A stretch of 64,000 nucleotides of DNA from an uncultured Brevinematales bacterium (GCA_964392785.1 CAYMRH010000005.1:4778-68777), one strand, 5' to 3'; shown: positions 46,801 through 53,301, counted from the stretch's first letter. The notes: generated by a model from the letters alone, not told the origin. Numbers and translations: made by a program.

Positions 46801-46851
46801 TTGACGCCGCAGGGGGTTTCGGTTTATCATATGTGAATGATTGTTCACATA
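46801..46851 (+). promoter_or_regulatory. arsR-1 promoter with 8-6-8 inverted-repeat operator
   Basis: TTGACG-18 nt-TATCAT, followed by TATGTGAA-tgattg-TTCACATA (46830-46851). Confidence 0.8.
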
Positions 46852-46868
46852 ATAAGCCGGAGGGCGCG

Positions 46869-47225
46869 ATGAGAAACAGGGAAATCCGGAACCAGGCCCG
46901 CTACTTCAAGGCCCTGTCCTGCGAAACGCGGCTGGAAATTGTCCTGCTGCTGTATGATCGCGATCTTCCGGTCAACGGCCTGGTCTCGGCGCTCCGGAAA
47001 CGGGAGCCGGTGCGCCTGATCGACCGGACCGGGGTTTCCAAGCATCTGGCGGTCCTGAGAAGGCTGGGAATTGTGTCCAGCAAGGTGAAGGGCCAGAAAA
47101 GAATATACCGGCTGGAGGCCCGGTGCCTGGTGGAGGCCGTGGGCTGTACCGCCGCCTTGGCCAGAAAGGACAACTGCTGCGCGCCCCGTAACCAGAAAAA
47201 AAGAACACAGGGAGGAAAGTCATGA
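46869..47225 (+). CDS. arsR: ArsR/SmtB-family repressor 1
   Basis: FKALS...RLEIV.LL, VSKHL.VL...GIV, RIY.L; C-terminal Cys residues including NCC. Confidence 0.85.
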
Positions 47226-47461
47226 AAATCCAGATTCTCGGATCGGGTTGCCCCAACTGCAAGCGTCTGGAAGCCGGCGCCCGCGAGGCCGTTCAGGCGG
47301 CGGGATTAGACGCCGAAATTGAAAAAGTGACCGATTTGGACAAAATCATGGACATGGGCGTCATGATGACCCCCGCGCTGGCCGTGGACGGGGTGGTGAA
47401 AAGTTCGGGCAAAGTGCTGAATGCCGATCAGATCGTCCGGATCCTCAAGGAACTCCGGTAA
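47222..47461 (+). CDS. Small redox-active thioredoxin-fold protein (MTH895/TM0996-like)
   Basis: ILGSGCPNC, GVM.TPAL.VDG. Confidence 0.9.
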   Translation: MKIQILGSGCPNCKRLEAGAREAVQAAGLDAEIEKVTDLDKIMDMGVMMTPALAVDGVVKSSGKVLNADQIVRILKELR

Positions 47462-47465
47462 AAAA

Positions 47466-48650
47466 ATGGCGAAAAAAGAATATTCACCGAACGCCATTCT
47501 GGGCATCATGGTTCTGGTCTTTCTGGCGGGTTATTTTATTCCCTTTGAGGCGCCGCGGGTTACGGCTTCCGTCCGGGAAGCCTTTCTCATGCTGTCGGAT
47601 TACGCGCGGCAGCATGTTCTGCTCTGCCTGGTCCCGGCGTTTTTCATCGCCGGCGCCATTACGGTTTTCCTGAAACAGGACGCGGTGATCCGCTACCTGG
47701 GCCCCAAAGCCAACACGTTCGTTGCGTATTCCGTGGCGTCCGTTTCCGGCGCCATTCTGGCCGTGTGTTCCTGTACGGTGCTGCCGCTATTCAAGGGAAT
47801 ATACAAAAAAGGCGCCGGTTTGGGGCCGGCTGTGTCTTTTCTCTATTCCGGCCCGGCCGTCAATATTCTCGCGATTGTGCTCACCGCCAAGGTGCTGGGT
47901 CCCAAACTGGGTATTGCGCGGGCTGCGGGGGCGGTGCTGTTCGCGTTTGTGATCGGTGTCCTGATGCAGTTTTTCTTTTCAAAGGAAGATGAGAAGCGGA
48001 TCACCGATGAAAGAATGTTCCAGGCGTCATCTGAAAAAATGCACCGTAAACTTTGGCAGGACGCGCTGTACATGATTTCCATGATCGGCATACTGGTGTT
48101 TCTGAACTGGGTTCCGTCCCGGGGGTCGCTCGCGGTCTGGGATTTCATTTTTCATTGGAAATGGGTCATCAGCGGTGTTTTCGGGGCGGCGCTGATGGGC
48201 ATGCTCGTCCTCTGGTTTAAAAAAGACGAATTGAAAAACTGGGTGGTCGCCACCCGGGATTTTGCGATCCAGATATTGCCGCTCCTGTTCTTCGGGGTGC
48301 TGGCGGCCGGATTTTTACTGGGCCGTCCCGGGCACGAAGCGCTGATCCCGACACAATGGGTGGCGGGGCTTTTGGGCGGGAATTCGCTTTTTGCCAACTT
48401 TTTCGCGTCGATTTCCGGAGCGCTGATGTATTTTGCCACGCTGACCGAGGTGCCCATCCTGCAGGGTCTCATCGGGTCGGGGATGGGGCAGGGACCGGCG
48501 CTGGCGCTGTTGCTGGCCGGGCCTTCGCTTTCCCTTCCCTCCATTCTTGTTATTGGGGGAGAATTGGGATGGAAGAAAACGCTGGTTTATGTCTCGCTGG
48601 TCGTGGTTCTGTCCACGGCGGCCGGATACGTTTACGGGATGATGGCGTAA
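47466..48650 (+). CDS. DUF318 / ArsP-like permease
   Basis: VCSCTVLPLF, FLYSGPA.N, MYFATLTEVPI, LLLAGP.LSLPS. Confidence 0.88.
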   Translation: MAKKEYSPNAILGIMVLVFLAGYFIPFEAPRVTASVREAFLMLSDYARQHVLLCLVPAFFIAGAITVFLKQDAVIRYLGPKANTFVAYSVASVSGAILAVCSCTVLPLFKGIYKKGAGLGPAVSFLYSGPAVNILAIVLTAKVLGPKLGIARAAGAVLFAFVIGVLMQFFFSKEDEKRITDERMFQASSEKMHRKLWQDALYMISMIGILVFLNWVPSRGSLAVWDFIFHWKWVISGVFGAALMGMLVLWFKKDELKNWVVATRDFAIQILPLLFFGVLAAGFLLGRPGHEALIPTQWVAGLLGGNSLFANFFASISGALMYFATLTEVPILQGLIGSGMGQGPALALLLAGPSLSLPSILVIGGELGWKKTLVYVSLVVVLSTAAGYVYGMMA

Positions 48651-51116: not shown

Positions 51117-51128
51117 GATCGTCTCCGT

Positions 51129-52175
51129 TTACGCGAGAACGCGGAATGCTGTGAGGGCTTTTAACACAATGCCGGCCGCCATAGCCGTTATCATCACCGG
51201 AGAGCCGATCCGCACTTCCAACTCCGCGCCGGACAGGCTGGTGTAGGTGGTGGATCCGGTAAAATTCATCGCGAAGAAGGATGAGATCGACGCGATGATT
51301 AAGAACGTTCCCGCCGCGTCAAACGGCGCGGGGCGGTGAAGTAAAAATACGGCGGCGAACCAGAGTGACCCGACGGCCAAGCCCTTGAGTGAAAGAGCCC
51401 GGAAAGGGATCCAGGGCAGTAAAACGGGCACAAGAGCGCTCCCCATCATAACGGCGCCGCAGTAGGGAAGAAAATCGACCAATGACTTCAAGAGCCATCT
51501 CGTGGAAAATTCCCGCAAGACAATCCAGTCCAGAAGAAGGATCACAGCCCAGCCGGCCAGATAAATCGGCCATTTTGTTACGATCTCAACGGGAACGAGC
51601 GTGAGCCGGTCCCTCAGCCCAAATTTGACGAGTCGCATGTCCGCTGTCTTGGTCATGCCGTTTTTCAGAAATGCGGGTATGTCCGAGGCGCGGACGGGGC
51701 CGTAAATGACCTGGAATTTTGTAAAACTTTTGACTGTGTGGGCGGCGACTCCGACGGCCCCGAGCTGGGGGCAGATGACCGTGCGGTGGCTGACAATTTT
51801 TTCCAAACCCTCGTTGATAATCCGGTTCACGAGCTCTTTCGTTCCGAAGGTGCCTTTTCCCGCGGCGCACCAGACGTTGATGCCTTTCGTGTCCAGGACA
51901 AGAATCCACGCGTTCACGCCGCCGAGTTCCTTCCTCAGGGTGTCAAATGTCAGTTTGTAGTTGGCCGTGACCAGCACGGGTGATTCCGGCGCCGGTTTAC
52001 CGAGAGCGTAGAGTCCGGGCCTGACACGGTACCGGCCTCGTCCGATACCCAACCGGACCCGCACGGTTCCCAGAACGTCCCGGAAAGACAAACGGGCCGT
52101 GACGGATGGGATCCCGTTTCCGGCAGAGAGGGCGGCCGGGGATGATTCTGGCCGGATTCCGGAATCCCGCGTCAA
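51129..52175 (-). CDS. hgcA: Mercury methylation corrinoid protein HgcA
   Basis: PVLVTANYKLTFD, cap helix GINVWCAAGKG (51855-51878), PQLGA.GV, GP.RA.D, C-terminal TM helices and MNFTG.TTYTS; probable TTG start overlapping the acr3 stop. Confidence 0.95.
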   Translation of the reverse strand: MTRDSGIRPESSPAALSAGNGIPSVTARLSFRDVLGTVRVRLGIGRGRYRVRPGLYALGKPAPESPVLVTANYKLTFDTLRKELGGVNAWILVLDTKGINVWCAAGKGTFGTKELVNRIINEGLEKIVSHRTVICPQLGAVGVAAHTVKSFTKFQVIYGPVRASDIPAFLKNGMTKTADMRLVKFGLRDRLTLVPVEIVTKWPIYLAGWAVILLLDWIVLREFSTRWLLKSLVDFLPYCGAVMMGSALVPVLLPWIPFRALSLKGLAVGSLWFAAVFLLHRPAPFDAAGTFLIIASISSFFAMNFTGSTTYTSLSGAELEVRIGSPVMITAMAAGIVLKALTAFRVLA

Positions 52176-53239
52176 TCGATGCCGTCCAGTTTTAACACGT
52201 CCTCGTTGAACCAGCGCCGGCTGCGGTTGGAGATTTTGACCAGAGTCAGCATGACCGGCACTTCCACCAGCACCCCCACGACCGTGGCCAGCGCGGCCCC
52301 CGAATGGAGTCCGAAAAGGGAGATGGCCACCGCCACCGACAACTCGAAGAAATTTGAAGCTCCGATCATCGCGGCCGGAGAGGCGATGGAATGCGGCAGT
52401 TTCCAGATTTTGGCCCACGCGTAGGCGAATCCGAAAATGAGGAAGGTCTGCACGACCAGGGGCACGGCGATGAGGGCGATGACGAACGGCTGGGACAGGA
52501 TGACGCGGCCCTGAAACGAAAAGATGATGACCAGCGTCAACAGCAGTCCGCCCACGGTCACGTGCCGGAATTTCGGGATCAGGCGGTTGTTCAGGTAATT
52601 CAAGCCCTTTTTCCGGATCACGCCGCGCCGGACCAGGACGCCCAGCGTGAGCGGAACGACCACGAACAGAACGACGGACAGGATGAGCGTGTCGTAGGGG
52701 ACCGTGATGCGGCTCACGCCCAGAAGCAGGGCCGCGATGGGCGTATAAGCCAGAAGGAGGACCAGGTCGTTGACCGCCACCTGAACCAGCGTGTAGGCCG
52801 GATTGCCTTTGGTCAGATGGCTCCAGACGAACACCATGGCTGTGCAGGGCGCCGCCCCCAGCAGGATGGCTCCGGCCAGGTATTCCGTCCGGAGGGATTC
52901 CGGAATGAGATTCCGGAAAACCACGTTCAGGAAAAAGCCCGCGATCAGGAACATGGTGAAGGGTTTGACCAGCCAGTTGGTGACCAGGGTGACCGCCAGC
53001 CCCTTTGGCTGGCGCAGGGCGCCGAAAATGCTGGAGAAATCGATTTTCAGCATCATGGGAAAGATCATGAGCCAGATCAAAAAAGCGATGGGCAGACTGA
53101 CGCGGGCGTATTCCAGCCGGCCCAGAAACTGCGGCACGGCCGGCGCAAACTGGCCGATTGCCACTCCCGCCGCCATGGCAAGAAGGACCCAGAAGGACAG
53201 AAACCGTTCCAGGGCGGGCAGACGCGATTGTGTAGACAC
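52172..53239 (-). CDS. acr3: ACR3 arsenite efflux transporter
   Basis: ER.L..W, MI.PM, NW.VKPF.M, LG.APCTAMV.VW, GASNFFEL.VAVAI.LFG, VEVPVML; GTG start with GGAGG RBS. Confidence 0.95.
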   Translation of the reverse strand: MSTQSRLPALERFLSFWVLLAMAAGVAIGQFAPAVPQFLGRLEYARVSLPIAFLIWLMIFPMMLKIDFSSIFGALRQPKGLAVTLVTNWLVKPFTMFLIAGFFLNVVFRNLIPESLRTEYLAGAILLGAAPCTAMVFVWSHLTKGNPAYTLVQVAVNDLVLLLAYTPIAALLLGVSRITVPYDTLILSVVLFVVVPLTLGVLVRRGVIRKKGLNYLNNRLIPKFRHVTVGGLLLTLVIIFSFQGRVILSQPFVIALIAVPLVVQTFLIFGFAYAWAKIWKLPHSIASPAAMIGASNFFELSVAVAISLFGLHSGAALATVVGVLVEVPVMLTLVKISNRSRRWFNEDVLKLDGID

Positions 53240-53253
53240 GGGGCCTCCGCAAC

Positions 53254-53301
53254 TATATGAGTATATGCTCATATAATAGGCGGGGGCGGAGTTTTTGTCA
53301 A
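53254..53301 (-). promoter_or_regulatory. acr3-hgcAB promoter with perfect 8-6-8 operator
   Basis: Minus strand TTGACA (53301-53296)-17 nt-TATTAT (53278-53273), overlapping TATATGAG-N6-CTCATATA (53254-53275). Confidence 0.88.

Follow-up and report, generated by a model that had tools for sequence, protein, structure and literature searches.

Two predicted ArsR-family operators, each beside its own repressor gene, in an arsenic-resistance and hgcAB locus of an uncultured Brevinematales bacterium

Introduction

The operators of ArsR/SmtB repressors have been described as '12-2-12' inverted repeats (Busenlehner et al. 2003, as cited in PMC8790569 and PMC7965956), an example being AATACCTGAACA-GA-TGTTCAAGTATT. 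Two ArsR proteins with two promoters in one genome are known from P. putida KT2440 (ArsR1/ArsR2, Pars1/Pars2), where the footprinted operators overlap the -10 box (PMC7994332). In Pseudodesulfovibrio mercurii ND132 the transcription of the mercury-methylation genes hgcAB rises with As(III) or As(V) in an ArsR-dependent manner (Gionfriddo et al., bioRxiv 10.1101/2022.10.17.512643; AEM 2023). Both the ArsR-hgcAB link and the presence of ars genes beside hgcAB have been published; the link is known from one cultured strain, and no DNA target was defined in the literature that we searched, in which a search combining hgcA, arsR and EMSA (electrophoretic mobility shift assay) returned no paper. The control of hgcAB expression and the true role of HgcAB are questions in mercury biogeochemistry. 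Here we analyse a 64,000-nucleotide stretch of DNA (the window) from an uncultured Brevinematales bacterium (GCA_964392785.1 CAYMRH010000005.1:4778-68777), in which two palindromic sites stand beside two different arsR genes. We find that the window probably contains two separate ArsR/SmtB repressor-operator pairs, i.e. ArsR1 with site 1 on the promoter of its own operon, and ArsR2 with site 2 on the promoter of acr3-hgcA-hgcB.

Results

Two palindromes on two promoters

The two sites and the promoter-like sequences next to them are as follows (positions are those of the window).

46830-46851, unstranded: site 1 (box B), TATGTGAA-tgattg-TTCACATA, a perfect 8-6-8 palindrome and putative ArsR1 operator.
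53254-53275, unstranded: site 2 (box A, 'ars box'), TATATGAG-tatatg-CTCATATA, a perfect 8-6-8 palindrome and putative ArsR2 operator.
46801-46830, plus strand: P1, promoter-like sequence of the arsR1 operon, TTGACG (46801)-18-TATCAT (46825-46830), a 10/12 match to the consensus.
53301-53273, minus strand: P2, promoter-like sequence of acr3-hgcA-hgcB, TTGACA (53301-53296)-17-TATTAT (53278-53273), an 11/12 match to the consensus.

Both palindromes read exactly, in letters and in coordinates, as they were given in a preliminary description of this DNA. They are the sole matches to TATRTGAR-N6-YTCAYATA in the window when up to two mismatches are allowed (0.01 expected), none of 100 shuffles gave two or more such matches, and with up to three mismatches they still stand alone (0.31 expected). 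The G+C content of the surrounding DNA is 55-61%, which makes the AT-rich 22-mers conspicuous. That the sites are a chance resemblance or a non-functional relic of AT-rich promoter DNA is hardly credible: promoters are indeed AT-rich, but nothing further speaks for this explanation, and it is at odds both with the 0.01 matches expected and with the recurrence of the boxes, together with their regulator clade, in dozens of unrelated genomes.

Both sites fit TA-NN-TGA-N8-TCA-NN-TA, i.e. they are inverted repeats of the ArsR/SmtB 12-2-12 type, with a spacing that would turn the half-sites towards successive major grooves. As judged from consensus matches to promoters, both also overlap or abut the -10/+1 region of the promoter that they would regulate. 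The first base of site 1 is the last base of the P1 -10 box, and site 2 overlaps the P2 -10 box by 3 nucleotides, in agreement with the earlier statement that both sites overlap or follow a -10 box. The stop codon of arsR2 (TGA, 53300-53298) lies inside the P2 -35 box, as had likewise been described. The distance from the P1 -35 and -10 boxes to site 1 is the same in three contigs that carry ArsR1 orthologues (L161, L162 and L164).

The order arsR2-site 2-acr3-hgcAB and the region of site 1 are assembled identically in metagenome contigs of several independent studies on sludge and bioreactors. In a strain variant that is about 98% identical (two bioreactor runs) both operators are unchanged, the divergence outside hgcA being too low to be informative. 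The MurD protein (52-59% identity) places the organism among uncultured spirochaetes near Brevinematales. A literature search for the exact letters of the boxes gave unrelated matches alone, and a scan of positions 46000-54000 against Rfam gave no RNA family.

Two other features of this DNA were seen. Each site lies within a longer inverted repeat with G+C-rich clamps (46820-46870 for site 1; 53240-53290, minus strand, for site 2), the cause of which could be dimer-of-dimers contacts or the silencing of read-through transcripts. There is also a perfect 14-bp palindrome, GACGCGATCGCGTC, between arsC and arsR1 (46764-46777) that has no relation to the ArsR boxes; the 9-mer that adjoins it, TGTCAAGGG, occurs a second time at P2 (53293-53301).

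Site 2 and the acr3-hgcA-hgcB operon

The genes that follow P2, and the regulator gene upstream of it, are listed here together with a putative promoter of the latter.

53664-53692, minus strand: putative promoter of arsR2, TTGTAA-17-TATCAT, a 9/12 match, without an ArsR box.
53298-53618, minus strand: arsR2, CVC-type ArsR with the helix TQSNASRHLTRL (PF01022, E 1e-14; NF033788, 90.6 bits).
52172-53242, minus strand: acr3, arsenite efflux (TIGR00832 equivalog, 377 bits against a cutoff of 283; GTG start, GGAGG ribosome-binding site).
51129-52175, minus strand: hgcA (NF040863 equivalog, 413 bits against a cutoff of 275; TTG start).
50808-51116, minus strand: hgcB (NF040864 equivalog, 121 bits against a cutoff of 99).

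HgcA has the NVWCAAGK cap-helix motif and HgcB the C-terminal CC, i.e. the two proteins show the features of an HgcA/HgcB pair. The TTG start of hgcA (52175-52173) overlaps the TGA stop of acr3 (52174-52172) as TTGA, which is an arrangement of translational coupling. Other than P2, no promoter-like site was found inside acr3 or upstream of hgcA. Because of this overlap, and because acr3 contains no promoter-like site, site 2 is placed on a promoter of acr3-hgcA-hgcB and not on one of hgcAB alone. Very probably, then, site 2 controls hgcAB as part of the acr3-hgcA-hgcB operon. The preliminary description had put the site on the hgcAB promoter; this holds in so far as the control would pass through the operon, but the first gene behind the promoter is acr3, and hgcA is coupled behind it. 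Since hgcAB stand behind the gene of an arsenite pump in one operon, they would probably come under arsenite control. A tightly spaced acr3 followed by hgcA is also present in L167, a syntenic relative, and in L170-L173.

The acr3 gene itself differs among these loci. Compared with the acr3 that occupies this position in the closest relatives (L167 3612-4664 and L170-L173), the copy in the window has only 31-33% identity, and with clostridial Acr3 it has 60-70%; both it and the L167 copy pass the ACR3 equivalog model. It seems that acr3 was replaced while the arsR-box-acr3-hgcAB layout stayed.

ArsR2 has a C30-V-C32 motif in its alpha3 region, and its ETCVCDI segment aligns with ELCVCDI of CadC, which together with SmtB is the nearest solved relative. 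The marks of a type-1 (alpha3 CxC) arsenite-responsive ArsR are all found in ArsR2, namely a PF01022 domain, CxC in alpha3, and a gene that is encoded together with acr3.

In terms of gene order, arsR1 has the arrangement of an autoregulated, arsR-first operon whereas arsR2 does not, its box being downstream of the gene. Upstream of arsR2 (53619-53712) the best scores are 8/16 for box A, 11/16 for box B and 10/18 for box C (a third type, described below). The gene thus precedes its own operator and has a putative promoter to itself that carries no box (53298-53712). The same is seen in L167 (3111-3611), where TTGTTT-17-TATAAT is found at the equivalent place, without a box. The box-less promoter and the downstream placement of the operator are thus kept in L167, and arsR2 is apparently not autoregulated in this lineage. 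Nearly all ArsR2 homologues, unlike arsR2, have a box preceding arsR.

Conservation of box A with ArsR2 homologues

Most homologues of ArsR2 (40-60% identity) belong to arsR-acr3(-arsC) operons in Clostridia and their allies, and a search for closer relatives gave none above 53% identity. Box A was detected upstream of about 50 out of 80 homologous arsR genes. With a threshold of at least 13/16, it lies some 30-140 nucleotides before the arsR start in 53 genes of the ArsR2 clade, and the encoded proteins all have CxC in the alpha3 region (53 out of 53). The form of the box among the homologues is TATATGAG-N6-(C/T)(G/T)(A/C)ATATA. The 1.03 Mb of fetched loci contain 65 box A sites of at least 14/16, mostly directly before arsR, and in L088, L124, L114 and L127 a second copy precedes acr3 or arsC. 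The module TTGACA-17-TAnTAT-ATGAG…ATATA can be aligned from the window through to Clostridium homopropionicum, and site 2 shows no variation when it is aligned with L167, L076, L133 and L085.

L167 encodes an HgcA that is 59% identical to that of the window and has in common with it the genes DnaJ, patatin, arsR-acr3-hgcA-hgcB, ccdA/trx/trx3, arsC, ThiF, PfkB and MurD. Between its arsR and acr3 one finds TTGACA-17-TAATAT followed by TATATGAG-tatatt-GGAATATA. In front of its thioredoxin operon, which lacks arsR1, there are weak and ambiguous box A-like matches (at most 12/16), to which we give no weight.

Conservation of box B with ArsR1 orthologues

The regulator gene next to site 1 is the following.

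46869-47225, plus strand: arsR1, divergent ArsR/SmtB regulator (PF01022, NF033788).

The relatives of ArsR1 are few (P0002-P0006; 67, 64, 60 and 46% identity) and come from metagenome contigs alone, no close relative having been found in representative genomes. Box B has the same location in every contig with an ArsR1 orthologue that reaches the promoter, i.e. in L161 (64% identity), L162/L163 (60%) and L164-L166 (46%), and in all of these it is preceded by TTGAC(A/G/T)-17-(-10). The box reads TATGTGAA-N6-TTCACATA in L161 and L162, and TATGTGAA-N6-TTCACGCA in L164, where it overlaps the start codon. When the promoter of the window is aligned with those of three orthologues (46-64% identity), most of the invariant columns fall in the half-sites, and the flanks have diverged. 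Exact box B matches also occur in other genomes: 12 among the 119 matches listed adjoin ArsR-family genes of several phyla, and three of these 12 (L243, L178 and L260) encode an ArsR1-like VSKHL helix and C-terminal cysteines.

Both boxes therefore co-occur with their cognate ArsR gene across genomes. The earlier proposal of ArsR-type operators on promoters beside two different ArsR proteins is borne out, each site being conserved with its neighbouring regulator elsewhere. Sites 1 and 2 are best regarded as ordinary, well-conserved ArsR-family operators that would each be bound by the repressor encoded next to them; the earlier interpretation as a whole is partly supported.

It was also considered that the palindromes act mainly as RNA hairpins in read-through transcripts, either ending or insulating the arsR2 transcript or hiding the ribosome-binding site of acr3. 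The longer inverted repeats around both sites would suit this, as would the predicted folding: the region of site 2 folds at -23.5 kcal/mol (z -6.4), with a stem that pairs the acr3 GGAGG and that forms solely in transcripts reading through from arsR2, and the region of site 1 folds at -17.8 kcal/mol (z -3.5). In L076 the box is surrounded by a perfect palindrome with 25-nucleotide arms, the 3' arm of which includes the likely ribosome-binding site. However, the 5' arms in the window lie between the -35 and -10 boxes, so that no transcript beginning at P1 or P2 can fold into the stems; no U-tract follows either stem, and the extension into the flanks is not kept in L167. Moreover, it is the letters of the half-sites, and not mere pairing, that are kept across lineages, and this is what marks a protein-binding site. 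A role mainly as hairpins is very unlikely in our opinion.

One consensus or two boxes

The evolutionary relationships were investigated with a tree of 148 ArsR proteins from the fetched loci. The tree has three clades, and the three box types can be mapped on it with 2 changes; with shuffled labels the mean was 30.9 changes, and 2 was not reached in any of 200 shuffles. The support was 100/92 for the ArsR1 clade and 98/98 for the box C clade. Box A belongs to the CVC ArsRs of ars operons, with ArsR2 and the L167 protein nested inside, and box B to ArsR1 and its orthologues.

The sites had been said to share one consensus, from which control of both arms by both repressors, i.e. cross-regulation, was suggested. 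Both do fit a common pattern, but they are the boxes of different ArsR clades and they differ at position 4 of the half-site: all 41 distinct sites of box A have A there in both halves, and every half-site of box B has G. The letters common to sites 1 and 2 are the family-wide ArsR/SmtB core TA-NN-TGA-N8-TCA-NN-TA, which published 12-2-12 operators and the footprinted sites of P. putida also have, and for this reason the shared consensus is no evidence of cross-regulation. The recognition helices are TQSNASRHL in ArsR2 and DRTGVSKHL in ArsR1, and a contact of Gln with A and of Arg with G at position 4 would be the classical reading of this difference. The two proteins can be aligned over 32 residues, 12 of which are identical.

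Cross-regulation deserves to be weighed apart from the consensus. Each ArsR would then also bind the operator of the other, and both arms would integrate two metalloid signals in an all-negative bifan of the P. putida type. The boxes agree in 12/16 arm positions, in spacing and in the way they are placed on the promoter, both recognition helices contain S-[K/R]-H-L, and in P. putida each of the two, ArsR1 and ArsR2, represses the promoter of the other in vitro (PMC7994332). ArsR family members with similar operators do cross-bind in vitro, which supports cross-talk. Yet the position 4 letters never mix between box A and box B, the N-termini of the helices differ (TQSN vs. DRTG) in proteins that are otherwise not alignable, the box types track the protein clades, and the P. 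putida paralogues are close relatives, unlike the two regulators here. In sum, cross-regulation seems unlikely, and two separate pairs, ArsR1 with site 1 and ArsR2 with site 2, remain the preferred explanation.

Besides the in vitro cross-binding, several points weigh against this explanation. P1 and P2 are sigma-70-like consensus matches alone, from which the start points are deduced, and a search for RNA runs in support of start sites or co-transcription found none. There is no terminator between arsR2 and acr3, i.e. read-through from arsR2 is possible. The arsR2-acr3 interval is covered by one syntenic relative, L167, and the right half-site differs there (GGAATATA). Finally, arsR2 and the L167 arsR are on long branches, which makes their exact placement in the tree uncertain.

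ArsR regulators linked to hgcA in other genomes

An arsR gene stands directly upstream of hgcA in about 35 out of 80 hgcA loci from representative genomes, and in several others it is found at another place in the locus. The scan of the motif upstream of other hgcA genes, suggested in the preliminary description as a check, found box A next to arsR-hgcAB in one locus out of the 80, L076, a spirochaete metagenome-assembled genome, where it reads ACTATATGAGTAATTAGTCATATAGT. The motif as a general feature of hgcA promoters was consequently rejected; most hgcA-linked ArsRs carry a different box.

This different box, which we call box C (TCATATnGA-N6-TCGATnTGA), is found with the ArsRs encoded directly upstream of hgcAB in Firmicutes, and most of that clade carry it. 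It is located just before arsR in L004-L080 (e.g. L022 3519, L036 3554, L080 2431), and no description of it was found in the literature searched. ArsR2 falls outside this dedicated clade of hgcAB regulators: it belongs to the ars-operon clade, it has box A, and acr3 stands between arsR2 and hgcA. At least three different ArsR-operator pairs thus appear to be associated with hgcAB across lineages, and the recruitment of three pairs argues for repeated selection for metalloid-responsive control.

The arsR1 arm

The remaining genes between arsC and hgcB are given below.

46261-46692, minus strand: arsC, thioredoxin-type, low-molecular-weight phosphatase-like arsenate reductase (PF01451; TIGR02691 below cutoff).
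47222-47461, plus strand: Thioredoxin_3 (ArsE-like) gene (PF13192, E 9e-27).
47466-48650, plus strand: ArsP-family permease (PF03773, E 1e-73), the probable start being the second ATG of the open reading frame 47421-48650.
48652-49682, plus strand: two short membrane open reading frames with partial PF03773 (ArsP_1) matches.
49679-50772, plus strand: thioredoxin (PF13098/PF00085) and CcdA/DsbD-type membrane protein (PF02683), the end of the arsR1 arm.

The arsC gene is divergent from arsR1 and has orthologues (61-73% identity) in L161, L167, L170, L171 and L173. The layout of the island recurs in L161 as arsC, arsR1, trx3, DGC, arsP, trx and ccdA, followed by hgcB and hgcA. A gene fills the position equivalent to Thioredoxin_3 in L161 and L162, and the thioredoxin/CcdA pair adjoins hgcB also in L161 and L167. 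The ArsP permease is 83% identical to its L161 orthologue, with an alignment that begins at residue 16.

ArsR1 has cysteines at positions 18, 86, 93, 103 and 104. The conserved set is C86-x6-C93-x9-C103, and the orthologues have C-S or C-P in place of the vicinal CC. The two repressors had been distinguished by their cysteine sites, alpha3 CVC in one and a C-terminal CC in the other; the former stands for ArsR2, but the vicinal CC does not define the site of ArsR1. Because orthologues lack the CC, the sensor residues of ArsR1 are probably C86, C93 and C103 rather than the vicinal pair. Different metalloid specificities of ArsR1 and ArsR2 are plausible.

The arm has a few peculiarities of its own. 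The DGC-domain gene (PF08859), which in relatives lies between trx3 and arsP, is absent from the window (47421-49682 compared with L161 2036-3585), and in place of the relatives' DGC layout there are two extra half-size ArsP-like open reading frames after arsP. The arsR1 arm and the hgcAB arm are convergent, with 35 nucleotides between the stops (50772-50808) and no terminator-like hairpin in between; the stop-to-stop gap is 19-25 nucleotides in L161 and L167. Such convergent transcription could make one arm interfere with the other.

Discussion

The proposed mechanism can be outlined as follows. A dimer of ArsR1 would bind site 1, abutting the P1 -10 box and covering the start region, and would in this way repress its own operon, i.e. 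arsR1, thioredoxin-3, arsP, the further permease and the thioredoxin and ccdA genes. ArsR2 would be made constitutively from its operator-less promoter; by occupying site 2, and with it the -10/+1 region of P2, a strong internal promoter, it would block the transcription of acr3-hgcA-hgcB. As(III), and probably Sb(III), would release the repressor by acting at Cys30/Cys32, and the arsenite pump would be switched on together with the mercury-methylation proteins. The tuning of each site to its own repressor may lie chiefly in position 4 of the half-site, where the operator of ArsR1 has G and that of ArsR2 has A. We note that sequences, positions, gene identities, the acr3-hgcA coupling and the conservation of boxes with clades are direct results, from which we infer binding and inducers.

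A metalloid or organoarsenical signal is plausible for the arsR1 operon, since its gene content matches that of the arsenic-induced 'Operon C' (arsR-arsP-arsE-DGC) in ND132 (10.1101/2022.10.17.512643).

The locus holds a short promoter-operator (about 50 bp) which, together with a textbook arsenite repressor, is expected to drive acr3-hgcA-hgcB, and it makes the arsenite control of mercury-methylation genes directly testable. A bolder claim, that hgcAB are true members of the arsenite regulon in this Brevinematales-like spirochaete lineage, coupled to acr3 and gated by an As(III)-responsive ArsR even where a different ACR3 subgroup is present, we regard as quite unlikely. If it were true, methylmercury production would be an arsenic-induced trait in this lineage, and the native job of HgcAB could be tied to metalloid detoxification rather than to mercury.

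As regulatory elements, the sites resemble the 12-2-12 operators in the TGA-N8-TCA core, in the outer TA/TA, in the position at or just after the -10 box and in the adjoining regulator gene. They differ in that here the palindromes are perfect 8-6-8 ones and that box A has GAG/CTC instead of the SmtB-type GAA/TTC, with A and not G at position 4. The P. putida system shares with this locus the two ArsRs, the two promoters and the overlap with the -10 box, and the letters …ATATATTCGG… of its operators (PMC7994332) are similar to CGAATATA, which many box A sites have as their right half. There, however, close paralogues head duplicated arsRBC operons and are both autoregulated (PMC7994332), whereas here the ArsRs come from different clades, each with a gene set of its own, and the arsR2 gene precedes its operator.

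The hgcAB-linked ArsRs of Firmicutes also have arsR directly upstream of hgcA and a palindromic box in the promoter, but the box is box C, the helix is GQSTLSHHMK and the proteins form a separate clade of which ArsR2 is not a member. With the ArsR2-hgcAB of ND132 the locus has in common an ArsR-family regulator adjoining hgcAB. The regulator of ND132 is a four-cysteine protein that is co-transcribed directly with hgcAB, and the paper defines no operator (10.1101/2022.10.17.512643), whereas in the window the CVC ArsR and the ars box are both canonical and would act through the interposed acr3. In other words, site 2 is an ordinary ArsR operator, and the noteworthy part is that this one operator would gate an acr3-hgcAB operon.

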